NCBI GenBank assembly: GCA_001816835.1
Contig: MHDB01000013.1
Location: 25,334-57,433 of the forward strand
Length of the DNA: 32,100 nucleotides
From: Candidatus Woykebacteria bacterium RIFCSPLOWO2_01_FULL_43_14
GTDB lineage: Bacteria > Patescibacteriota > Microgenomatia > Woykebacterales > 2-01-FULL-43-14
Direction of reading: 5' to 3'
Shown here: piece by piece, positions 3,733 to 25,461 of the stretch
How positions within the stretch are numbered: the first letter of the stretch is position 1
Layout: each line of letters begins with the position of its first letter
The notes under the pieces: generated by a model
Told to the model about the DNA's origin: nothing
The model's input: the letters and a program-made list of their open reading frames with translations, nothing else
The model's database searches: none
Position numbers and translations under genes: made by a program

Positions 3733-4017
3733 ATGTCAAGATCAACTAAAAAAGGACCCTATATAGACGCTAAACTATCAAAGAAGATAGAAAAATTAAA
3801 CCAACTGGGTAAGAAAGAACCCATCAAGACTTGGGCTAGAGATAGTCAGATATCGCCTGAGATGGTTGGCCATACGATCTCAGTCCACAATGGAAGGATT
3901 TTTATCCCAGTTTTTGTTGTCGAACAGATGGTCGGACATCGATTAGGTGAATTTTCCCTAACACGCACCTTTCGTACTCATGGAAGAGTGGTGGAGAGGA
4001 CAACTTCACCAACATAG
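3733..4017 (+). CDS. rpsS: 30S ribosomal protein S19
   Basis: [28 protein letters not shown]. Confidence 0.99.
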
Positions 4018-4021
4018 GATA

Positions 4022-4096
4022 AGTACGTAGTACATAGTACGTAGTTGGTAGTAGGTAGAAAATTTCTACGTACTACGTACTAAAAACTACCAACTA
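4022..4096. repeat. Inverted array of degenerate 7-bp units, same family as 711-773
   Basis: AGTAC GTAGTAC ATAGTAC GTAGTTG GTAGTAG GTAGAAA ... CTACGTA CTACGTA CTAAAAA CTACCAA CTA. Confidence 0.88.
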
Positions 4097-4100
4097 AATT

Positions 4101-4430
4101 ATGGAAATAGTAAGCAGTAACAAATACATAAGAATATCTCCACGGAAGGTAAGATTACTCTCAAAAAAGCTGGAAAATCTTCCTGTGGGAGTGGCTGTCA
4201 CTACTCTGAGGTTTATGCCTCAGAAAGCGGCAATACCTCTCATTAAGGTCATAAAAGCTGCGACTAGCGATGCTGAGCACAACTTCAAGCGAGATAGCCA
4301 GAAATTGGTGATCAAAAAGATTGAGGTGAACGAAGGACCGACCCTAAAGAGGAGTATTCCTCGAAGCCGAGGTATGTCCCACCCCATTCTGAAGCGAACT
4401 ACGCATATAAAAGTAACTCTAACTGATTAG
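4101..4430 (+). CDS. rplV: 50S ribosomal protein L22
   Basis: IRISPRKVRL, VNEGPTLKR..PRSRG, ILKRTTHIKV. Confidence 0.98.
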   Translation: MEIVSSNKYIRISPRKVRLLSKKLENLPVGVAVTTLRFMPQKAAIPLIKVIKAATSDAEHNFKRDSQKLVIKKIEVNEGPTLKRSIPRSRGMSHPILKRTTHIKVTLTD

Positions 4431-4503
4431 ACTCTAAGATCAGTTTGTGGTAGAATTCAGCTTCTCGGTTGGTTAGCTAAGAACTATTTGGAGGTTTATT
4501 AAA

Positions 4504-5136: not shown

Positions 5137-5160
5137 GTGTATTGGGTTGATGGATAGCTT

Positions 5161-6003: not shown

Positions 6004-6372
6004 ATGGTTCGAGAACAATCGAGGTTAAAATCAGCCGATAACAGCGGGGCGAAAGAGTTGTATGTCATAGACATCCCCGCCAGAAGCGTTCAAAAAGTCG
6101 CCCGTCTTGGGGAGGTAATTACTTGTGTTGTAAAAGGTGCTGACCCCCAAGGTGCTGTCAAAGATGGCGAGATAGTCAAGGCCGTAATTGTGCGTACTAA
6201 AAAGGAAAAAAGACGCTCAGACGGTTCCTATATTAGATTTGACCAAAATGCAGCGGTTATTATTGGTGGGGACGGTGTACCAAGAGGGACTCGAATTTTT
6301 GGCCCTATTGCACGTGAGGTTCGGGACAAGGGTTTTTTAAAAATAGTTTCTTTAGCTCCGGAGATTGTCTAA
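6004..6372 (+). CDS. rplN: 50S ribosomal protein L14
   Basis: [41 protein letters not shown]. Confidence 0.99.
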
Positions 6373-6375
6373 TAT

Positions 6376-6459
6376 ATGAACCATGAAATTTTCAATTTCA
6401 GAACCCTGTTTCGCTTTATCTTTATGTATAGAAATAATATTAAGGAAATCTTGAAATGA
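6376..6459 (+). CDS. Putative 27-aa bridging micro-ORF (MNHEIFNFRTLFRFIFMYRNNIKEILK)
   Basis: ATG 3 nt after the rplN stop; TGA overlaps the rplX ATG (ATGA). Resembles the micro-ORF at 13854. Confidence 0.5.
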   Translation: MNHEIFNFRTLFRFIFMYRNNIKEILK

Positions 6460-6758
6460 AATTAAGAATTGGAGACAACGTAAAAGTTAATACAGGTTCG
6501 AATAAGGGTAAAACAGGTAAAATACAAAAGGTGGTCGAAGACAAGAGAAAGGTAGTTGTCGAAGGCATTAATGTGTATAAAAAACATACCCGCAAGAACA
6601 TGGGTGGTGGTATTGTCGAAAAAACATTTCCCTTGGACGTTTCAAAAGTCAGCCTTGTTTGTCCAAAATGTAACCAGACTGCTCGAATTGGGTTGACAAT
6701 AGGTAGCGATGGTAAGAAAATAAGGACTTGCAGAAAATGTAAGCAACCGTTGAACTAA
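6456..6758 (+). CDS. rplX: 50S ribosomal protein L24
   Basis: KOW motif GDNVKVNTGSNKGKTGKI, VVVEGIN, C-terminal CxxC...CxxC. Confidence 0.98.
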   Translation: MKLRIGDNVKVNTGSNKGKTGKIQKVVEDKRKVVVEGINVYKKHTRKNMGGGIVEKTFPLDVSKVSLVCPKCNQTARIGLTIGSDGKKIRTCRKCKQPLN

Positions 6759-6769
6759 GGTAAGTTAAG

Positions 6770-7321
6770 ATGGATTATTTAGATTTGTACAAAAAGGAAA
6801 TAGTACCAGCCTTCAAAAAGGAATTTGGGTTTACCAATGATTTGGCCGTTCCCAGACTTGAGAAAATTGTGCTTAACATTGGGACAGGGGACAGCCTTAG
6901 TAACGATAAGGAAAAAGAGACTCTTTTGGCGGAACTTTCTGCAATCTCAGGTCAGAAACCGTCTATTAGAAGGGCTAAGAAGGCTATAGCTGGTTTTAAG
7001 ATCAGACAAGGCGACCCTGTGGGTGTAAAAGCGACTTTAAGGGGTAAAAGAATGTACGATTTCTTACATAAGCTTGTGAGCATTGTGTTGCCTAGAGTTA
7101 GAGACTTTCGAGGTTTGGATTATAAAAGTATAGATAAGTTAGGCGGCTTTAGTCTTGGTTTTAGAGAGCACATTGTTTTTCCGGAAATAGATGTGGCTAA
7201 AATCGGGAAATATCGTGGTTTGCAAGTCACTGTCGCGACTACTAGCAAAGACCCAAAACAAACTAAAAGACTACTTGAATTATTCGGAGTTCCTTTTAAG
7301 AAGGAGGAAACAAAAGGATAG
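6770..7321 (+). CDS. rplE: 50S ribosomal protein L5
   Basis: VPRLEKIVLNIG, ISGQKP, LPRVRDFRGL, VFPEI. Confidence 0.99.
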   Translation: MDYLDLYKKEIVPAFKKEFGFTNDLAVPRLEKIVLNIGTGDSLSNDKEKETLLAELSAISGQKPSIRRAKKAIAGFKIRQGDPVGVKATLRGKRMYDFLHKLVSIVLPRVRDFRGLDYKSIDKLGGFSLGFREHIVFPEIDVAKIGKYRGLQVTVATTSKDPKQTKRLLELFGVPFKKEETKG

Positions 7322-7419
7322 GTTGTAGGCCTTCGGCTCTGAGGCTCAGGCTCGAAGAGTTTTAGGTGGTAGGTTGTAGGAGAACTAGCTACAACCTAAA
7401 ACCCACAAACTATAACCTC
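7322..7419. repeat. Inverted heptamer array with a nested imperfect palindrome at 7331-7357
   Basis: GTTGTAG [CTTCGGCTCTGAGGCTCAGGCTCGAAG] GTTTTAG GTGGTAG GTTGTAG ... CTACAAC CTAAAAC CCACAAA CTATAAC. Confidence 0.85.
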
Positions 7420-7428
7420 AAGTGATAT

Positions 7429-7614
7429 ATGGCTAAGAAATCATTAATTGTAAAAGCAAACAGAGAACCAAAATTTGCCGTAAGAGGTTATAATCGTTGT
7501 CATAGGTGTGGGCGCCCTCGGGCTTACATTCGTAGATTTGGGGTTTGTCGATTGTGCTTTAGACAACTAGCCGTAAGAGGAGAACTTCCAGGAGTTACTA
7601 AGTCTTCTAGGTAA
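7429..7614 (+). CDS. rpsN: 30S ribosomal protein S14, short Zn-binding (type Z) form
   Basis: 61 aa; RCHRCGRPR...[17 protein letters not shown]. Confidence 0.98.
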
Positions 7615-7618
7615 AAGT

Positions 7619-8008
7619 ATGGATACATTATCTGATCTACTAATAAGAATAAAAAACGGTTACATGGCCAGAAAGAAAATGGTTCTGATTCCGCACTCAA
7701 AAATGAATGAAGCAATTACAGTAGTGCTAGAGAAGAATAATTACATTGAGAAATATCAGGTCAAAACTACTGAAAAAGGTTTTAAAGACTTAGAGATAAT
7801 GCTTAAGTATGACGGTAGTGAGCCTGTCCTTACGGACATTAAGAGAGTCTCTAAACCTGGTCTTAGGATTTACTCAAGAACCAATAAACTTCCTAGGGTC
7901 TTAAGTGGTTTGGGAATAGCTATTGTGTCTACTTCGCAGGGTCTTATGACGGATAAGGAAGCTAGAAAAAAAGGTGTTGGAGGCGAGCTAATAGCTCGGG
8001 TTTGGTAA
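7619..8008 (+). CDS. rpsH: 30S ribosomal protein S8
   Basis: DLLIRIKNG, RVSKPGLRIY, GIAIVSTSQGLMT, VGGELI. Confidence 0.99.
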   Translation: MDTLSDLLIRIKNGYMARKKMVLIPHSKMNEAITVVLEKNNYIEKYQVKTTEKGFKDLEIMLKYDGSEPVLTDIKRVSKPGLRIYSRTNKLPRVLSGLGIAIVSTSQGLMTDKEARKKGVGGELIARVW

Positions 8009-8009
8009 A

Positions 8010-8558
8010 GTGAGTAGGATTGGTAAACAGCCAGTGGTGATCCCCTCTGGTGTAGAAATAAAAATCGAGGGGACTACTGTGATAGCTAAAGGTCCTAAAG
8101 GGGAATTAAGTCAAAAACTCCCCCCTTTGACGAGCTCAAGGGTGGAAGAGTCCTTGATTAGGGTTGAGGCAAAGAATGCTTCCAAAGAAGCTAGGGCAAT
8201 GCACGGTTTAGCCAGAAGTTTGGTTGCTAACTTAGTCGAAGGAGTAGAAAAAGGTTTTTCTAAGACCTTGGAACTAAGTGGTATTGGTTTTCGAGCAAGC
8301 GTTACAAGTGGGAAGCTCACTTTGAATGTTGGATTTTCTCATCCCGTGGAGATTACTCCTCCAGAGGGGATAGAATTCAAGGTTCAAGAAAACAAGATAA
8401 CAGTTTTGGGTATTGATAAACAGTTAGTCGGTCAGATGGCTGCTAAGGTGTATAAAGTAAGGCCACCAGAACCTTACAAAGGTAAAGGTATTAAGTTTGC
8501 TGGGCAAATAATTAAGAAGAAAGCTGGCAAGTCTGGTAAGGCTGGGGCAAAGGTATAA
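8010..8558 (+). CDS. rplF: 50S ribosomal protein L6
   Basis: MSRIGKQPV, KGPKGEL, GFSHPV, RPPEPYKGKGI. Confidence 0.99.
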   Translation: MSRIGKQPVVIPSGVEIKIEGTTVIAKGPKGELSQKLPPLTSSRVEESLIRVEAKNASKEARAMHGLARSLVANLVEGVEKGFSKTLELSGIGFRASVTSGKLTLNVGFSHPVEITPPEGIEFKVQENKITVLGIDKQLVGQMAAKVYKVRPPEPYKGKGIKFAGQIIKKKAGKSGKAGAKV

Positions 8559-8560
8559 AA

Positions 8561-8908
8561 ATGAAAACAAAACTTTTATCTTCTCGACGACAAGGTCGAA
8601 AAAAAGCAATCACTGCCAAGATCAAGGCTTCTACACCGATTAGGTTGGGGGTCTTTCGCTCTAGTGCTCACATTTACGCTTATATAACAGATGACACTAA
8701 AGGTAGGGTTATACTTTCTAGCCGTGATTCCACGGCTAAAACCAAAATGACTAAAACAGAGAAAGCTTACGAAGTTGGCAAAAGTATTGCACAAAAAGCT
8801 AAAGAGGCAGGAATCAAAAAGATTGCCTTCGACCGTTCCGGTTTTCTTTATCACGGTCGGGTTAAGAGTCTAGCCGAAGGGGCAAGAGAAGGAGGCTTGG
8901 AGTTTTAA
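8561..8908 (+). CDS. rplR: 50S ribosomal protein L18
   Basis: [39 protein letters not shown]. Confidence 0.99.
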
Positions 8909-8921
8909 CCAAGGAATTTTG

Positions 8922-9503
8922 ATGGATACATTTGAAGTTAGAGAATTTGAAGAAAAAGTTGTGCAGGTAAATAGAGTTTCCAAAAAAACTAAGGGTGGAA
9001 ACAAGATTGGTTTCTCAGTTTTGGTGGTGGTTGGGGACAAAAAAGGCCGAGTTGGCGTTGGTTTGGGTAAAGCTACGGATGTCCAATCCTCAATTCGTAA
9101 AGCAGTGAGCTACGCCAAAAAACATCTAATTGTGGTTCCTATGAAGGGGAACACTATAACTCATGAAACGCTCGTCAAAAAAGGCGCGGCCCGGATTTTC
9201 CTTAAACCTGCCTCCAGTGGTACTGGTGTTATTGCCGGTGGGGCAGTAAGGGCTGTTGTCGAAGCTGCTGGGATTAGGGATATTTTGTCCAAAGTACTGG
9301 GGACTTCGAATAAAGCTTCAAATGTCTATGCCACTATTGAGGCGCTACGGACCCTGAAACCTTTAAAGGTAAGACCACAAGAAGTCACCAAACAGGAATC
9401 AGCTCCTGAGCCTCCCAAACCAGCCAAAGTTACCAAACCAAAAGTTGTGACTGAAAAGAAGTCTGTCCGTAAGAAAGTAAAGGACTTAAGTGAAACTAAA
9501 TAA
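8922..9503 (+). CDS. rpsE: 30S ribosomal protein S5 with Lys/Pro-rich tail
   Basis: [43 protein letters not shown]. Start is TTG 8919 or ATG 8922. Confidence 0.98.
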
Positions 9504-9942
9504 TATTCCGGGTGTATTAACTAAAAAAGCTAAAAGAATTGGCCGAGGGCACGGTAGTGGTAAAGGTAAGACTTCTAGTCGTGGTACCAAAGGCCAAAAA
9601 TCTCGTGGCCGCATTAATCCTAGCTTTGAAGGAGGCCAGCTTAGAATTGTAAAAAGATTGCCTTTTAGACGTGGTGTTGGTAACCCTGGCTATAAATCAA
9701 AGTTTGTGGTTCTCAACGTAAGTGACCTTAACCAATTTGAGGCAGGAAGTGTCGTTGATGCTAAGTTCTTGGTCGAGAAAGGCATGATTTCCCAAGGAGA
9801 CGCTCGGAAAGGTGTTAAGATATTGGGTAATGGGGAACTGAAAGTAGCCCTAACTGTGAATCTTTCGATGTCAAAAGTAGCTAAAGAAAAAATTGGGGGT
9901 GCCGGAGGAACTACGCCGACTGAGGCAGTCAGCAATAATTAA
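9490..9942 (+). CDS. rplO: 50S ribosomal protein L15
   Basis: [38 protein letters not shown]. Confidence 0.99.
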
Positions 9943-11225
9943 TGCTCAAATACATACGAGCTTTTTGGAATACACCACAGCTGAAGAAAAAATTACTAAT
10001 CACCACTGCTGTGCTTATTATCTTTCGTTTGGTGACTTTCATTCCTGTTCCTGGAGCGGATGTTGATAACCTTAAGCAAATTATTTCTCGTTACGAAGTT
10101 TTGGGGTTGTTAGATCTTTTTTCTGGGGGGACTTTTTTCAACTTCTCTATTATCGCCCTTGGACTTAATCCTTATATTAATGCCTCCATTATCATGCAGC
10201 TTTTTACAATGGTTTTCCCCAAGCTTGAAGAGCTTTCCAAAGAAGGTGAGTATGGTAGGCGTAAAATCAATCAATATACTAGATATCTCACTGTACCTTT
10301 ATCTTTGCTCCAGTCTTTTGGGATAGTCACTTTTTTGCAAAGAGGTGACTTAGCGGTTTTTGGACAACTTAGCACTCTTGACCTGCTGGCGGTTATCTTG
10401 ACTCTAGTTGCTGGGGCAATCTTTCTGATGTGGTTAAGCGAACTGATAACAGAGAATGGCATTGGTAACGGTGCTTCGGTAATAATCTTGGTAGGTATTG
10501 TCAGCCGACTTCCAGTAGTGTTAGTCCAGACTTTTAGCTTACTGGATGAAACAAAAATCTTTAGTCTAATTGGTCTCTTGGTAATTGCTTTTTTGGTGAT
10601 TACAGGGATCGTTTTTGTCAACGAAGCTCACCGCCGTATTCCAGTTCAGTACGCTCGGAGAGCCAAAGACTCGACCCAAACCACCCAGATGACCTACCTG
10701 CCTTTACGTGTTAACCAGGCGGGAGTAATCCCTATTATTTTTGCTATTTCCTTAGTCTCTCTACCTTCTATTCTAGGTTCATTATTGACTACCTCAAAAA
10801 GCCCTTGGTTGCTAGATCTATCCTCTAAATTAGTTACTTATTTTCAAACTACCAATCCGGTTTACTACACTACCTACTTTGTCCTGGTTTTAGGGTTCAC
10901 CTATCTTTATACTGCGGTTAGCTTCAACCCCACTAAGATTGCCGAGGAAATCAAGAAACACGGCGGTTTTATCCCTGGTATTAGACCCGGCCGTCCGACC
11001 AGTGAATATCTAAATTTTATCCTGAATCGCATTACACTACCCGGAGCGATCTTCTTGGGCGTAATAGCAGTCTTACCTTTCGTAGTTACCCAGCTTACCA
11101 ATTTTCAGAACTTGGCTATCGGTGGGACGGGACTTTTGATTGTCGTCTCGGTAATTTTGGAAACTTCTAAACAAATCCGTTCTATGTTAATTCAGCGTAG
11201 TTACGAAGGTTTTCTAGGAAAATAA
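9942..11225 (+). CDS. secY: Preprotein translocase subunit SecY
   Basis: FSIIALGLNPYINASIIMQL, GIGNGASVII, AGVIPIIFA, IPGIRPG; about 10 hydrophobic segments. Confidence 0.99.
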   Translation: MLKYIRAFWNTPQLKKKLLITTAVLIIFRLVTFIPVPGADVDNLKQIISRYEVLGLLDLFSGGTFFNFSIIALGLNPYINASIIMQLFTMVFPKLEELSKEGEYGRRKINQYTRYLTVPLSLLQSFGIVTFLQRGDLAVFGQLSTLDLLAVILTLVAGAIFLMWLSELITENGIGNGASVIILVGIVSRLPVVLVQTFSLLDETKIFSLIGLLVIAFLVITGIVFVNEAHRRIPVQYARRAKDSTQTTQMTYLPLRVNQAGVIPIIFAISLVSLPSILGSLLTTSKSPWLLDLSSKLVTYFQTTNPVYYTTYFVLVLGFTYLYTAVSFNPTKIAEEIKKHGGFIPGIRPGRPTSEYLNFILNRITLPGAIFLGVIAVLPFVVTQLTNFQNLAIGGTGLLIVVSVILETSKQIRSMLIQRSYEGFLGK

Positions 11226-11777
11226 ATGGCTAGCAGGAGCGTTTACTTAGTTTTTGGCTCGGAAGGCTCAGGTAAGACTACCCACGCCAAACTTTTGGCG
11301 GATTACCTAAAGATTCCTTTTGTTTCCTCAGGATCATTAATAAGAAAAGAAATTGAGTCAGAAAGTGTGATAGGTAAAAAGTTTGCCATCCGTAGCTCTG
11401 CTTACGTTGAAGATGATTTGGTAATACCTTTTATTTTAAGTGTTCTTGAGGATAGTAAATACCGTAATGGCTTCATTATTGAAGGTTTTCCCAGGGATCT
11501 GAATCAATTAAAGTCTCTGCAAGAGTTTCTAGCAAGAAAAGATTTAGCTATAAAAAAGGCTATTTACGTAACTTTATCCGAAAGTGAAGCTATAAGACGC
11601 TTAATTCAGCGTGCTCGCAGCGATGACACGCCGGATCAGATAAAAGCTCGACTTAGCGCCTACAGAGAACACAAAAAAGAGATGATTGACGAGTTGAGTC
11701 GAAGTAAGTTACTACTTGAGATAGACAATTCCCGTGCCAAAGAAGAGGTATTTGAAGAGCTTAAAAATAAAATATGA
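11226..11777 (+). CDS. adk: Adenylate kinase-family NMP kinase, short-LID, divergent motifs
   Basis: P-loop GSEGSGKTT, SSGSLIR, GFIIEGFPR, RARSDD; canonical secY-adk-map position. Confidence 0.88.
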   Translation: MASRSVYLVFGSEGSGKTTHAKLLADYLKIPFVSSGSLIRKEIESESVIGKKFAIRSSAYVEDDLVIPFILSVLEDSKYRNGFIIEGFPRDLNQLKSLQEFLARKDLAIKKAIYVTLSESEAIRRLIQRARSDDTPDQIKARLSAYREHKKEMIDELSRSKLLLEIDNSRAKEEVFEELKNKI

Positions 11778-12523
11778 TTAAGATAAAAAATGATAAAGAG
11801 ATTTCCTTGATGGCTAAGTCGGGAAGAATAGCTGCCTTGGTTTTGGAAAAAGCCGTTGAACTAGCTAAACCGGGCACAACTACTTTAGAGATTGAGGAGG
11901 CTGTGGAGGAAGAGATTAGCAAACTGGGCGGGGAAAGTGCCTTTAAGAAAGTGAAAGGTTACCATTATGCGACTTGCTTTAGCGTTAATGACGAGGTGGT
12001 TCATGGACTACCTTCGGGTTATGTGTTAAAAAATGGCGATATTTTGGGTATAGATCTGGGAGCTACCTATCAAGGATATTTTTCTGACACCGCGACCACT
12101 GTTATAGTAGGTGGTGTCTCTGAAAAAACGACCAGGCGTTTTTTAGAAGTGGGGAAAGAAACCCTAGCTAAAGCTATAAAAGAAGCTCATATAGGTAAGA
12201 AAATTGGAGATATAAGTGCCACGATTCAGGAAAATATTGAGGCATCTGGTTACAGTGTTGTAAGAGAGCTGACTGGTCATGGCATAGGAACCTATTTGCA
12301 TGAAGAGCCTCCCGTGCCTGGGGTAGGTAAGAGAAATACTGGGCCAGAGTTAAAAGAGGGCATGGTTATTGCTATAGAGGTAATTTACAATATGGGTAAA
12401 CCAAGAGTAAGCATTTTGGATGATGGCTGGACTATAGTTACTTCGGATGGCTCTTTGTCAGGTTTGTTTGAGCATAGTATTGCGGTCACCAAAAGTGGTC
12501 CTGTAGTATTGACTAAAGTTTAA
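11774..12523 (+). CDS. map: Methionine aminopeptidase type I
   Basis: SVNDEVVHGLP, GIDLG..SDTA, LTGHGIG..LHEEP, IAIE, FEHSI. Confidence 0.98.
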   Translation: MIKIKNDKEISLMAKSGRIAALVLEKAVELAKPGTTTLEIEEAVEEEISKLGGESAFKKVKGYHYATCFSVNDEVVHGLPSGYVLKNGDILGIDLGATYQGYFSDTATTVIVGGVSEKTTRRFLEVGKETLAKAIKEAHIGKKIGDISATIQENIEASGYSVVRELTGHGIGTYLHEEPPVPGVGKRNTGPELKEGMVIAIEVIYNMGKPRVSILDDGWTIVTSDGSLSGLFEHSIAVTKSGPVVLTKV

Positions 12524-12537
12524 GTATAGCGTAGAAT
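12509..12537 (+). promoter_or_regulatory. Internal sigma70-type promoter for the infA-rpmJ-alpha genes
   Basis: TTGACT-N17-TAGAAT overlapping the map stop. Confidence 0.65.
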
Positions 12538-12554
12538 TGGCAGGTTAAATAAAT

Positions 12555-12812
12555 ATGGCAGATAAAGAATTTATTGAAGTAGATGGTGTGGTTAAAGAAT
12601 CTTTGCCGAATACCATGTTTCGAATTGAAGCGGATTTTAGTAAGGTGCTGGAGCAAATTGGCAACCAAACTACAGAACCAAAGCGGCTCCTTCTTTGTCA
12701 CATCTCAGGGAAGATGAGAATGCACTATATTCGGATTCTTCCTGGAGACAGGGTAAAAATTGAAGTTAGCCCTTATGATCTGAACAAAGGGCGGGTTGTT
12801 TACAGGTATTAG
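12555..12812 (+). CDS. infA: Translation initiation factor IF-1 with loop insertion
   Basis: [48 protein letters not shown]. Confidence 0.98.
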
Positions 12813-12821
12813 TTGCAAATT

Positions 12822-12935
12822 ATGAAAGTCCAAGCCTCGGTTAAGAAAAGATGTAATAAGTGTAAAATTATAAGGCGCGAAGGTGTTGTTAGGGTTCTGT
12901 GTGAAAATCCGCGCCACAAACAGCGACAAGGATAG
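12822..12935 (+). CDS. rpmJ: 50S ribosomal protein L36 (Zn-binding form); not in the ORF track
   Basis: Translated by hand: [37 protein letters not shown]. Confidence 0.98.
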
Positions 12936-13025
12936 ATGGGAAATTTACAATTTACAATTTACAATTTTCAAATTAGCTCGGGGCCAGTGAAGGATGGTGC
13001 AACACCATCCGGAGCTTTAGCGTAG
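12936..13025 (+). CDS. Putative 29-aa bridging micro-ORF ([29 protein letters not shown])
   Basis: ATG immediately follows the rpmJ TAG; its own TAG ends 1 nt before the rpsM ATG. Confidence 0.45.
12944..12971 (+). repeat. Tandem heptamer TTTACAA x3 plus TTTTCAA
   Basis: Read directly from the sequence. Confidence 0.9.
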
Positions 13026-13026
13026 G

Positions 13027-13446
13027 ATGGCAAGAATAGCAGGAGTAGAATTACCTCAAAATAAAAAAGTATTGTTTGCCCTTCCTTATATATACGGATT
13101 GGGTCTAACTTTGTCTGAGAAAATTACTGAAGCAACTAAAATTGACCCAGACAAACGAGTGAAAGATCTTACTGAGGATGAGGTAATCAAACTTCAGAAA
13201 GAAGTAGAAAAATATGAGGTTGAGGGTGATCTCAGAAGATTAGTCATTGGTAATATCCGAAGATTGGAAGACCTCAAAACTTATCGGGGCCGGCGTCATC
13301 AGAAAGGTTTACCAGTCAATGGGCAACGCACCAGAAGTAATGCTCGTACCAAAAGAGGCAAGAGGGTAACAATTGGAGCTATGAAGAAAGACGCAATCTT
13401 GAAAATGGAGGCTAGCGCCAAGACTAAAGCTCCAGCCACAAAGTAG
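13027..13446 (+). CDS. rpsM: 30S ribosomal protein S13
   Basis: [42 protein letters not shown]. Confidence 0.99.
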
Positions 13447-13465
13447 GTTCTAGGGAATTGTATTT

Positions 13466-13852
13466 ATGACTGAATCAAAAAAAGAAACAACTAAGAAAGT
13501 AAAAGAGGTGTCAGCAGGTAAAGTTTTTGTCACAGCGACATTTAATAACACCTTAATTACAATCACTGATAGTAATGGTGATACCTTAACCTGTGGAAGT
13601 GCGGGCAGCAGCGGTTTTAAAGGTGCTCGTAAGTCGACTCCGTATGCAGCAACGACTGCAGTGACTGATGTAGCCAGAAAGGCTCAAAATATGGGGCTAA
13701 AAGAGGTTGAGGTGTATATCAAAGGTCCTGGTGCAGGTCGTGATGCTGCTATAAGGGCTCTACGGGGCTTAGGGCTGCGAATTAGCGCTATTGCTGACGT
13801 TACGCCGATACCTCACAACGGCACCCGCCCAAGAAAGATGAGGAGGGTGTAG
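13466..13852 (+). CDS. rpsK: 30S ribosomal protein S11
   Basis: ATFNNTLITITD, GFKGARKSTPYAA, GPGAGRDAAIRAL, DVTPIPHNG. Confidence 0.99.
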   Translation: MTESKKETTKKVKEVSAGKVFVTATFNNTLITITDSNGDTLTCGSAGSSGFKGARKSTPYAATTAVTDVARKAQNMGLKEVEVYIKGPGAGRDAAIRALRGLGLRISAIADVTPIPHNGTRPRKMRRV

Positions 13853-13853
13853 T

Positions 13854-13916
13854 ATGAACCATGATTACATCAGAACCATATTTTTACTTGACTATTTGAA
13901 AGAGGTTGAGGCGTAA
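13854..13916 (+). CDS. Putative 20-aa bridging micro-ORF (MNHDYIRTIFLLDYLKEVEA)
   Basis: ATG 1 nt after the rpsK stop; TAA 2 nt before the rpsD ATG. Shares MNH[ED]..RT[LI]F..[IL]KE with the ORF at 6376. Confidence 0.5.
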   Translation: MNHDYIRTIFLLDYLKEVEA

Positions 13917-13918
13917 AA

Positions 13919-14533
13919 ATGGCGAGGTATACTGGACCAAAATTTAGATTGGATCGAAGGGAAGGGGTTAATCTTTTCCTTAAGGGTGAACGAAGCTTAG
14001 GTCCTAAACATCCTTTAGAAAGAAAAGGAGCTGTTCCTCCTGGTCAGCATGGTCAGAAGAATACTCATAAGAAAGTAAGTGACTATGGGCAACAGCTCAG
14101 GGAAAAACAAAAAGTAAAAAGAATGTACGGAATCTTGGAAAAGCAGTTTAAGAACTACTTTACCCTGGCCGCCAAGAAAAAAGGTTCGACAGGAGAAACG
14201 CTACTTCAACTTTTAGAAAGCCGACTAGATAATGTTGTTTATAGACTTGGTTTAGCGGCTTCCCGCAACCAGGCAAGACAATTTGTGACCCATGGACATG
14301 TTTTGGTTGAGGGTGAGAAGTTGGATATCCCATCGTATAGGGTTAAGGTCGGGGAAGTAGTATCTATTAAGGGTAAGATGACCCACCTGCTGCCCCCGCT
14401 AGATAAGAATGCTAAGATTTCTGAGTGGTTGGAAAAGAAGGCTCTAGCTGGTAAACTATCCAGGATGCCACAGAGAGAAGAACTTGACCCAACAATAAAC
14501 GAACAATTAATAGTTGAATACTATTCTAGATAA
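13919..14533 (+). CDS. rpsD: 30S ribosomal protein S4
   Basis: MARYTGP, PPGQHG, QLREKQK, LESRLDNVVYRLG, LIVEYYSR. Confidence 0.99.
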   Translation: MARYTGPKFRLDRREGVNLFLKGERSLGPKHPLERKGAVPPGQHGQKNTHKKVSDYGQQLREKQKVKRMYGILEKQFKNYFTLAAKKKGSTGETLLQLLESRLDNVVYRLGLAASRNQARQFVTHGHVLVEGEKLDIPSYRVKVGEVVSIKGKMTHLLPPLDKNAKISEWLEKKALAGKLSRMPQREELDPTINEQLIVEYYSR

Positions 14534-24453: not shown

Positions 24454-25461
24454 ATGAAGTTAGAAAAGGTACTTATTATCCTGACCCTTTCGGTGGTTAT
24501 TATTTTACTTTCAGCTGTGAGGATCGGTGAGTATTTTGGAAGCATCTCCAGCGTCCCAACCCCCAAGAACCCAGATTCCTCAGTCCCAGCTTCTCAAGAA
24601 GAGATAAAACCTCTGGAGCAAGAGCTCCAGCTGACATTTGACACTAAAACTGCGAGTAAAGATCCTTTTAACGATTCAAACGGCCCTTTTTATCATGATG
24701 TTAACCTGGCGACCTCCATTGACGGTGTAAATTTTGCTTTTGATTCATTGGTACTGGAAAAAGCTTCCGTGCCGGATGTGGTCAGATTAGCTGACTCCAC
24801 CTTGGCCATTTATGCAGTGGATGGGTCTGGGAGATCTAAATCGGGGTTGATGGTTGCTATCTCCAAAGATGAAGGTCAGACTTGGCAACAAGGGTCAGTC
24901 CAGTTTGATTCCTTAGTTCCAGGGGCAGCTGACCCAGATGTGGTCGTGCTGCCTGATGGTAAAATAAGACTTTATTTTGTAGTTTTTGAGGATGTAGAGA
25001 ATAAGACAGTAGTACCAACCAATATGGTAAAAAGTGCTACCTCTTCAGATGGGGTAAACTTCAGTTTGGAATCCGGTGAGAGGCTTAAATATAGCAACCT
25101 TACGGATCCAGACGTTGTAAAGATAGGAAACTCATGGTTCATGTACTTCTCGCAAGGGGCCAAACTGTTGGCTGCTATCTCAAGTAATGGCTTAAGTTTT
25201 AAGTATCAGAAAGATATTCGCTCACTTGGTAGTGTTTCTAGCACAGTTAAAATAACTGAGGAGACTTACCGCCAATTTTACTGCAACAATGGTATAAAAA
25301 GCGCAACTTCCATTGATGGGCTTAGTTGGAAAGACGATGCAGGCTATAGACTTAAGCCAGGAACTAAAGAATTTGTTTGTGACCCCGCCCCTCTCAAAAC
25401 AGAGGGTGACAATTGGCTTATGTACTACAAAGTAGCCAAAGTTAGTGAGTCTAAACAATGA
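24454..25461 (+). CDS. Membrane-anchored or exported five-bladed beta-propeller, glycoside hydrolase/sialidase-like
   Basis: N-terminal hydrophobic helix; five repeats of S-x-[DN]-G-x-x-[FW] (one SKDEGQTW Asp-box), mostly followed by DP-x-V...[LM]Y. Confidence 0.75.
   Translation: MKLEKVLIILTLSVVIILLSAVRIGEYFGSISSVPTPKNPDSSVPASQEEIKPLEQELQLTFDTKTASKDPFNDSNGPFYHDVNLATSIDGVNFAFDSLVLEKASVPDVVRLADSTLAIYAVDGSGRSKSGLMVAISKDEGQTWQQGSVQFDSLVPGAADPDVVVLPDGKIRLYFVVFEDVENKTVVPTNMVKSATSSDGVNFSLESGERLKYSNLTDPDVVKIGNSWFMYFSQGAKLLAAISSNGLSFKYQKDIRSLGSVSSTVKITEETYRQFYCNNGIKSATSIDGLSWKDDAGYRLKPGTKEFVCDPAPLKTEGDNWLMYYKVAKVSESKQ

Follow-up and report, generated by a model that had tools for sequence, protein, structure and literature searches.

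Among described elements, MIRUs (mycobacterial interspersed repetitive units), which Supply et al. are said to have reported in 1997, offer the comparison with which we begin. The account of them excerpted in PMC12548453 has MIRUs inserting at start codons, with an open reading frame (ORF) within the repeat that is coupled at -4 nt, as an instance of short ORFs that only deliver ribosomes; the passage on them in PMC3184786 has the ends of the MIRU ORF overlapping the adjacent genes. Here we analyse a window of 32,100 nt (positions 25,334 to 57,433, forward strand, of contig MHDB01000013.1 in assembly GCA_001816835.1) from Candidatus Woykebacteria bacterium RIFCSPLOWO2_01_FULL_43_14, a bacterium of the Candidate Phyla Radiation (CPR). 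In its ribosomal-protein (r-protein) superoperon three long spacers are filled end to end by ATG-started micro-ORFs, and two of these spacers are, judging from their common stem-and-loop plan, copies of one dispersed hairpin element.

The likeness to MIRUs, as far as these are characterized in the passages cited, extends to several features: dispersed repeats of 40-100 bp that lie in operons at start codons, ORF ends that abut or overlap the flanking genes (-4), imperfect internal inverted repeats, and an insertion thought to have little effect on expression. At our locus the family is dispersed, the inserts stand between co-directional operon genes at the downstream start, and the ORFs abut the flanking stop and start with gaps of 3, 0 and 1 nt at the one end and -4, +1 and +2 nt at the other. 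The arrangement is that described for MIRUs, so that reading it as a relay of ribosomes would have a known precedent. Unlike MIRUs, the element has a low copy number (five copies), carries an ORF in only three of the five and shows no tandem copy-number variation in this genome; the host is a CPR bacterium and the site is an r-protein operon. Homology to the mycobacterial repeats is unlikely, given the different phylum and the A/T-rich sequence.

The S10-spc-alpha superoperon lies on the plus strand of the window, and 16 of 16 submitted proteins belong to the expected Pfam families. Seven of its spacers measure 54-107 nt, if ATG 14588 is taken as the start of rpoA. ATG-started ORFs bridge three of them, rplN>rplX, rpmJ>rpsM and rpsK>rpsD, at exactly the coordinates claimed for them in an earlier note on this DNA (Table 1); S19>L22, L22>S3, L5>S14 and S4>rpoA are unbridged. 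That note had also listed a GTG-started ORF between rpsC and rplP, which exists and is indeed the weaker case, and had described clear Shine-Dalgarno (SD) motifs with no bridging ORF before rpsC and rpoA, where we find GGAGGT 5' of rpsC and AGGAGG 5' of the likely rpoA start. It overlooked the ORF-less long spacers S19>L22 and L5>S14, a second ATG at 6383 and the dispersed-repeat nature of the spacers.

Table 1. Features of the bridged and related spacers and of their flanking genes, in window coordinates.
Feature	Position	Strand	Remarks
S19>L22 spacer, 83 nt	4018..4100	+	Dispersed long-hairpin repeat, no bridging ORF
GTG-started 6-codon ORF MYWVDG (weak case), between rpsC and rplP	5137..5157	+	Shuffle P with any start codon 0.048
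rplN (L14)	6004..6372	+	Pfam PF00238, E 2.6e-46; stop TAA 6370-6372
AAC-loop core, rplX copy	6374..6409	+	ATATG 6374-6378 / CCTGT 6405-6409, 4/5 pairs; AAC 6379-6381 and 6402-6404; upper hairpin 6382-6401; T-rich tail
Micro-ORF 1, 27 aa (MNHEIFNF...)	6376..6459	+	Starts 3 nt past rplN stop; TGA overlaps rplX ATG (ATGA, -4)
Second ORF in rplX spacer, 23 aa, other frame	6383..6454	+	Starts at second ATG of ATGAACCATGA; stop 1 nt before rplX ATG
3' module TTAAGGAAATCTTGAAATG of rplX spacer	6438..6458	+	Contains SD-like AAGGAA and rplX start codon; also in yidC copy
rplX (L24)	6456..6758	+	Pfam PF17136 and KOW
L5>S14 spacer, 107 nt	7322..7428	+	Composite of dispersed repeats, no bridging ORF
rpmJ (L36)	12822..12935	+	Pfam PF00444; stop TAG 12933-12935; AAGGA at 12928-12932
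Micro-ORF 2, 29 aa	12936..13025	+	0-nt gap after rpmJ; stop 1 nt before rpsM ATG 13027
A/T-rich heptamer repeat (AATTTAC, 3 copies and a variant)	12942..12975	+	Within rpmJ>rpsM spacer
Hairpin GGATGGTG-CAA-CACCATCC	12992..13010	+	Predicted fold; directly 5' of rpsM
rpsM (S13)	13027..13446	+	Pfam PF00416
rpsK (S11)	13466..13852	+	Pfam PF00411; stop TAG 13850-13852
AAC-loop core, rpsD copy	13852..13881	+	GTATG 13852-13856 / CATAT 13877-13881, 5/5 pairs; AAC 13857-13859 and 13874-13876; upper hairpin 13860-13873; tail TTTTT
Micro-ORF 3, 20 aa (MNHDYIRTIFLL...)	13854..13916	+	1-nt gap after rpsK; stop 2 nt before rpsD ATG 13919
rpsD (S4)	13919..14533	+	Pfam PF00163 and PF01479; GAGG 7 nt before ATG

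By "bridging ORF" we mean one whose start lies -4 to +3 nt from the upstream stop and whose end lies -4 to +4 nt from the start codon that follows. Each spacer was shuffled 20,000 times with dinucleotides preserved, which puts the chance of an ATG ORF that bridges it at 0.0079 for the rplX spacer, 0.0026 for rpsM and 0.0034 for rpsD; mononucleotide shuffles gave 0.0059, 0.0018 and 0.0025. Over all seven spacers, 40,000 mononucleotide shuffles predict 0.025 bridging ORFs, and three or more with a probability of 1.3e-6. None of six control spacers from this operon, reverse-complemented or reversed between the same flanks, was bridged. The three bridging ORFs are real and beyond chance.

The count against shuffled spacers that the earlier note had proposed points the same way among relatives, where a set of 251 long r-protein spacers held ten bridging ORFs against 1.8 expected, one of the ten being an L30 gene. 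Bridging ATG ORFs were found in 9 of 245 distinct spacers read in the sense direction and in none of the reverse-complement or reversed controls; when any start codon was accepted the counts were 13 for sense, 1 for reverse-complement and 1 for reversed. An excess of sense-direction bridging ORFs is seen in this operon and, less strongly, in relatives. Among 159 co-directional spacers of 40-200 nt in the genome as a whole, with gene starts set by a first-start rule, only the two callable r-protein cases were bridged (reverse-complement control 1, expected 0.98). A start-agnostic relaxed scan of 497 junctions added two further unrelated loci only, one a 33-aa membrane-like ORF and one with a TTG start.

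Comparison with relatives and with the rest of the genome indicates that the long spacers are lineage-specific insertions; the earlier note had likewise spoken of inserted DNA. In both genomes of the same family (G001 and G002), rplN and rplX overlap by -4 nt (ATGA), and in G001 the gaps at rpsK>rpsD and rpmJ>rpsM are 18 and 23 nt. Median gaps over 100 related loci are 2, 3 and 42 nt, the last at rpmJ>rpsM. Long spacers are sporadic at almost every junction of these loci and are filled with lineage-specific palindromic or tandem repeats; two junctions of one genome (G010) contain a repeat of its own, one copy of which carries a bridging ORF. When six long spacers from the window were compared by BLAST with the 807-kb genome, five had copies elsewhere. 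Copies of the S19>L22 spacer lie on contigs C23, C40 and C7 (90-96% over 55-63 nt), and those of L5>S14 at C13:18726 (75 nt, 100%) and on C22 and C41. The (AATTTAC)n heptamer of rpmJ>rpsM occurs at nine sites in all, the other eight of which are arms of long A/T hairpins, and ATGG stands at both ends of the rpmJ>rpsM insert, where it is a possible target-site duplication.

The L22>S3 spacer is present only once in the genome. Its window positions 4428-4456 hold a promoter-like TAGACT-17-TAGAAT with an extended TG, along with the strong GGAGGT before rpsC. The corresponding rplV>rpsC spacer of loci L115, L117 and L118 (genomes G010, G005 and G008) has an ORF of 12-14 codons that is common to three genera of the sister family f2; these micro-ORFs (MSKYFLIEKEIC, MKTYFLIIERVG and MKKYLVISKKKGFC) start 1-4 nt after the rplV stop and end 1-2 nt before rpsC. 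Inverted AATTTAC arrays form long A/T-rich hairpins at positions 13815, 14491, 15593 and 22231 of contig C41 (genome G000, the one analysed here), which also carries the 16S rRNA gene, and three of these hairpins come after an identical GC-rich palindrome, CGCGCACAGCGCGAG.

The element found in the rplN>rplX and rpsK>rpsD spacers, here called the AAC-loop element, has a lower stem of 5 bp (consensus ATAAG/CTTGT) that a symmetric internal loop, AAC/AAC, separates from an upper hairpin of 4-9 bp; a T-rich tail follows. Besides the rplX and rpsD copies the genome has three more: one in the yidD>yidC spacer (C44:13128), the paralogue of the rplX spacer; one in the clpB 5' leader (C39:3157), the paralogue of the rpsD spacer; and one on contig C9. 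In a set of 14 copies, made up of these five and nine metagenome loci, the lower stem has 5/5 pairs in 12 copies and 4/5 in two, and its variants are compensated (ATAGG/CCTGT in the yidC copy, GTATG/CATAT in rpsD, ATATG/CATAT in clpB). The sequence of the upper hairpin is different in every copy while its stems covary, and the T-rich tail follows the extended stem in 14 of 14. The 3' modules are common to pairs of copies, TTAAGGAAWTCTTGAAATG to rplX and yidC and GGTTGAGGCGTRAAAATG to rpsD and clpB; that of the rplX spacer matches C44:13187-13207 by BLAST over 21 nt at 95%. Predicted folds of three copies have z scores of -2.3 to -3.0.

A strict consensus, TAAGAACCT-N6-24-AGAACCTT, was present in 48 genomes out of a sample of 301 from the class, on both strands and in up to 32 copies, and the backward control pattern gave a single match in the same sample. 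The element is spread over many families of the class. With a looser pattern, genomes of the same order other than this one gave only control-level matches, and neither the window spacers nor three paralogous loci had an Rfam match at E up to 1. Two other interpretations of the conserved positions were rejected. Variable spacing of 12-18 nt and covarying stems favour a hairpin over a protein-binding DNA site formed by the GAACC direct repeats. A target-site duplication of the start codon, suggested by ATGAAATT at both ends of the rplX insert, was rejected for this element because ATA(A/T)G belongs to the covarying lower stem and to the cross-genome consensus.

Two copies outside the r-protein operon have surroundings of their own. 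The canonical element on contig C9 (G000:C9:3440-3600, locus L111) stands about 75 nt downstream of a strong promoter-like TTGACT-17-TATACT. A long-range stem of 8 bp (ACAGCCGG/CCGGCTGT) encloses it, with TTTTG next in order; no protein gene comes directly after the element and Rfam gave no match for it. It is possibly a small RNA. The clpB gene (G000:C39:3090-3240, locus L112) is preceded by an inverted repeat, TTAGCACTT-N10-AAGTGCTAA, that resembles CIRCE (controlling inverted repeat of chaperone expression) and overlaps a TTGACA box. The ATG variant of the element fills the whole predicted clpB 5' leader, so that the micro-ORF there would be leaderless or nearly so.

The start codons of micro-ORFs 1 and 3 belong to the hairpin itself. 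The change from ATAAG to ATATG supplies an ATG in three of the five genomic copies (rplX, rpsD and clpB), and all three remain open up to a point at most 2 nt from the next ATG, or overlapping it. The lengths of the upper-hairpin segment (20, 14, 16, 19 and 15 nt) do not differ by multiples of three. Between the rpsD and clpB copies, two compensating indels cause the middle thirds to be read in different frames, yet both are open and both end in VEA-stop. In other genomes of the class the ATG variant was found at control level, with the exception of one copy in a tandem array in G187.

We think it very improbable that the ORFs encode functional micro-proteins or regulatory leader peptides that act through their sequence. 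The N-termini MNHE and MNHD are alike, and the rplX and yidC copies have EIF(N/D)FRTLFR in common, but these likenesses coincide with conserved nucleotides of the hairpin, and the yidC copy has no ATG and contains an in-frame stop. The change of frame between the rpsD and clpB copies is likewise at odds with a conserved product. The peptides have no Pfam match, their exact sequences are absent from a collection of 15 billion proteins, and no similar peptide stands at these junctions in 100 related loci. Leader-peptide attenuators are marked by a conserved peptide or stalling motif; none was found here, where paralogues differ in frame and the ATG is missing from two of five copies. Since the peptides are not conserved between paralogous copies, the suggestion in the earlier note that they might be regulatory leader peptides is not supported.

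The best available reading is that the ORFs are by-products which hand ribosomes across the insert by termination-reinitiation, and on geometry and statistics we put the chances of this at about even. Reinitiation after termination drops steeply with distance in the data excerpted from PMC10666635, where about 20 nt nearly abolishes it. Small dispersed hairpin repeats would have inserted at S10-spc-alpha junctions that were ancestrally overlapped or nearly so, and would have moved the next start codon 66-91 nt away, too far for termination-reinitiation. Given the steep fall-off, such inserts would break the ancestral coupling, whereas both ends of each micro-ORF lie within range. The ATG 0-3 nt after the upstream stop would occupy about the former position of the start codon, behind SD-like motifs in the last codons of the upstream gene. 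The 16S rRNA has a canonical anti-SD at its 3' end (CACCTCCTT); GGAG at 6360-6363, in the end of rplN, is 12 nt upstream of the ATG of micro-ORF 1, AAGGA is 3 nt before ATG 12936, and GGAGG at 13842-13846, which forms the final Arg-Arg codons of rpsK, is 7 nt upstream of the ATG of micro-ORF 3. A ribosome that terminates or binds there would initiate on the micro-ORF and, in translating it, pass through the inserted hairpin and melt it; its stop would come -4, +1 or +2 nt from the following start codon, a position from which it can reinitiate. The peptides of 27, 29 and 20 residues would be by-products, and the open frame rather than the peptide would make the insertion harmless where balanced output is needed. 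From geometry and enrichment together we infer that the micro-ORFs may be translated, that ribosomes may be handed over at both ends, and that an open frame may have been selected.

Upstream short ORFs that deliver ribosomes, and synthetic bicistronic designs, are natural points of reference: in the portion of PMC12548453 that deals with them, the stop abuts the next start and the arrangement is proposed to drive translation and to melt RNA structure. Here, in contrast, the ORF would itself be fed by an upstream stop, which makes two serial hand-overs, and it lies in a mobile-looking repeat.

The relay put forward in the earlier note stands only in part: distances within the range of reinitiation and the enrichment in the sense direction speak for it, and a number of observations weigh against it. 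The S19>L22 and L5>S14 inserts lie in the same operon and have no bridging ORF. The yidD>yidC copy has no ATG, contains an in-frame TGA and is unbridged, and in other genomes there are canonical copies, such as the one after secY in L041, that have co-directional genes on both sides and contain no ORF. Both rplX and rpsD keep a plausible SD of their own within the 3' module of the element, AAGGAA and GAGG respectively, which upholds the caveat of the earlier note that SD-like motifs precede the downstream genes; de novo initiation may suffice, and with such motifs retained a relay is not indispensable. The rplX and rpsD spacers have their first 12 nt, the head ATATGAACCATGA, in common by descent, with the ATG included, and the heptamer repeat is stop-free in two of three frames by construction, so the shuffles overstate independence. 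The relatives counted are kin, 2 of the 9 matches being orthologous L22>S3 spacers, and their start codons were set from tblastn, which brings error into the count, as do crude ORF calls (at least 90 aa) into the genome-wide scan.

These points bear most directly on the possibility, which we regard as real but doubtful, that the ORFs are incidental: repeats that happen to have an ATG at the 5' edge and few stops would yield roleless ORFs, and the downstream genes would use their own SD motifs. In agreement with this, the hairpin is conserved as nucleic acid and the peptide is not, the ATG is absent from two of the five copies, no ORF is present in other long spacers or in canonical copies at other places, and an insert at a junction that was overlapped necessarily occupies the whole spacer; common ancestry and the largely stop-free heptamer, moreover, inflate the shuffle statistics. 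Counting related spacers once nevertheless leaves about 1e-4, an estimate from the per-spacer values for any two independent bridging events at about 0.002-0.006 each among six spacers. Relatives show nine sense cases against none in reverse complement, the three ATG copies are all open despite their frame changes, both ATGs of the rplX spacer give ORFs that end at the rplX start, and a strong SD stands ahead of ORF 3; these observations speak against incidental ORFs.

Folding separates the ORF-bearing spacers from the ORF-less ones. The former fold weakly (z -0.08, -0.95 and -0.47); in the minimum-energy folds with z -0.08 and -0.95 the start region of rplX or rpsD is paired with the element. 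The ORF-less repeat spacers fold strongly (z -4.2 for S19>L22 and -3.3 for L5>S14). In the predicted fold of S19>L22 (window 4011-4110), the rpsS stop UAG is base-paired with the rplV start AUG, so the 83-nt insert would place the two codons close to each other with no ORF. The L5>S14 insert has a similar fold.

A bolder proposal, which we consider unlikely, is that an element of the form TAAGAACC-hairpin-GAACCTTGTTT evolved a translatable variant here and became a self-coupling insertion cassette that colonises overlapped r-protein junctions, with read-through that may depend on translation capacity, and with ORF-less inserts that pair stop and start instead. The A-to-T change giving ATATG, compensated on the other stem strand, would have made the variant, and its copies have a tail with SD and ATG in common. 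Such a cassette could colonise an essential operon because two successive termination-reinitiation events would relay ribosomes through it, and since the ORF runs through a terminator-like hairpin, read-through could vary with translation capacity.

The last idea can be taken further, to a translation-sensing attenuator of the kind represented by the pyrBI-type leader. The AAC-loop hairpin and its T-rich tail would be a weak terminator or processing site, and a ribosome that follows the polymerase closely while translating the micro-ORF would block the hairpin, so that read-through into rplX or rpsD would track translation capacity. The tail present in every copy and the ATG inside the lower stem are consistent with this, and among 53 copies from other genomes the TAA of the element is the stop codon of the upstream ORF in nine, while nine lie between convergent ORFs. 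A terminator scan, on the other hand, flagged no intrinsic terminator (a G+C-rich stem with an immediate T run) in the spacers, did not flag the A/T-rich stems, and found 12 sites against 10.8 expected in shuffles. The 38 copies with unambiguous neighbours follow a sense ORF in 23 cases and an antisense ORF in 15, the rplX copy folds no better than shuffles, and the rpmJ>rpsM spacer holds a different element. We therefore hold an attenuator to be quite improbable.

The rpmJ>rpsM spacer may be mainly a promoter or leader of the alpha operon in which the ORF is coincidental, a possibility that we would entertain only tentatively. In 26 of 51 relatives, about half, this spacer has at least 40 nt, family f2 has a conserved hairpin upstream of rpsM, TACAAT-like -10 boxes lie within the heptamer repeat, and a stable hairpin precedes rpsM. 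Promoter-like sites, however, are not commoner than in shuffles (22 against 19.9), no Rfam leader was matched, and the 0-nt and 1-nt geometry has a shuffle probability of about 0.002; a promoter and a pass-through ORF can also coexist. The f2 hairpin, CTTGTCTACTGCTTGCGACC ... GCAGCGACAAGG (loci L116, L120, L125, L127, L128 and L130), is a candidate for an r-protein leader; the window has no counterpart of it.

Autoregulatory leaders of r-protein genes, such as the S4 site of the alpha operon, are structured RNAs that lie before rpsM or inside r-protein operons. The elements described here differ from them in having no Rfam match and in occurring also before clpB and yidC. They also resemble repetitive extragenic palindromic (REP) sequences and bacterial interspersed mosaic elements (BIMEs), being extragenic imperfect palindromes with covarying stems, single or in tandem, found across genomes on either strand. 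Neither the conserved direct flanks TAAGAACC ... GAACCTTGT nor the AAC/AAC internal loop is a feature of REP sequences. When the inserts are compared with the Neisseria REP2 and Borrelia IR repeats, as these appear in the excerpted text of PMC3184786, it is the 3' modules that are common between copies here (rplX with yidC, rpsD with clpB). In REP2, on the same account, the start codon is fused with its gene; the ORF here is a separate one that stops at the gene start, and no promoter was identified in the inserts.

The genome has ten Y1_Tnp-like ORFs of 212-235 aa, resembling IS200 and REP-associated tyrosine transposases (RAYTs), each with its own palindromic sequence in both flanks (G000, contig:position C20:19704, C17:44629, C26:49379, C28:12638, C12:11665, C2:3110, C14:6911, C17:12162, C8:3394 and C6:3230). 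These palindromes are G+C-rich and different from gene to gene; the two flanks are alike by BLAST in five of ten and by eye in the others. Ten such ORFs make a REP-RAYT-like layout that is unusually rich for a 0.8-Mb genome. The spacer repeats did not match the flanks of the ten Y1_Tnp genes, the sole hit being a chance match of 11 nt.

Whatever the role of the ORFs, hairpin repeats have invaded the core operon of this 0.8-Mb genome at five or more junctions, and one of the invading families, without an Rfam match, is present in many families of the class. Annotation pipelines would otherwise pass over such spacers or predict spurious small proteins there. Should the relay prove real, selection would have solved the insertion of junk DNA into an operon of stoichiometric output with throw-away ORFs, the idea developed for MIRUs would apply beyond mycobacteria, in uncultured CPR bacteria with their tiny genomes, and the operon would offer a test, set by nature, of how far a chain of termination-reinitiation events can extend and how well it works.

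The closest relatives available for these comparisons were a species genome at 74% L14 identity and, in a metagenome scan, best matches at 59-60% SecY identity. Four metagenome DNA contig runs returned the same strain and unrelated conserved fragments, with no informative spacer variants or indels, and among the sequencing runs found to contain this DNA none was of RNA. Contig depth in these runs was about 180-330 in window bins 7084-7354 and 12775-13045 (at most 20 in the small run X10), whereas the three large runs had about 3-80 in their remaining bins. Repeat modules in the two high-depth bins, or rpmJ, are probably common to many other contigs of the community.

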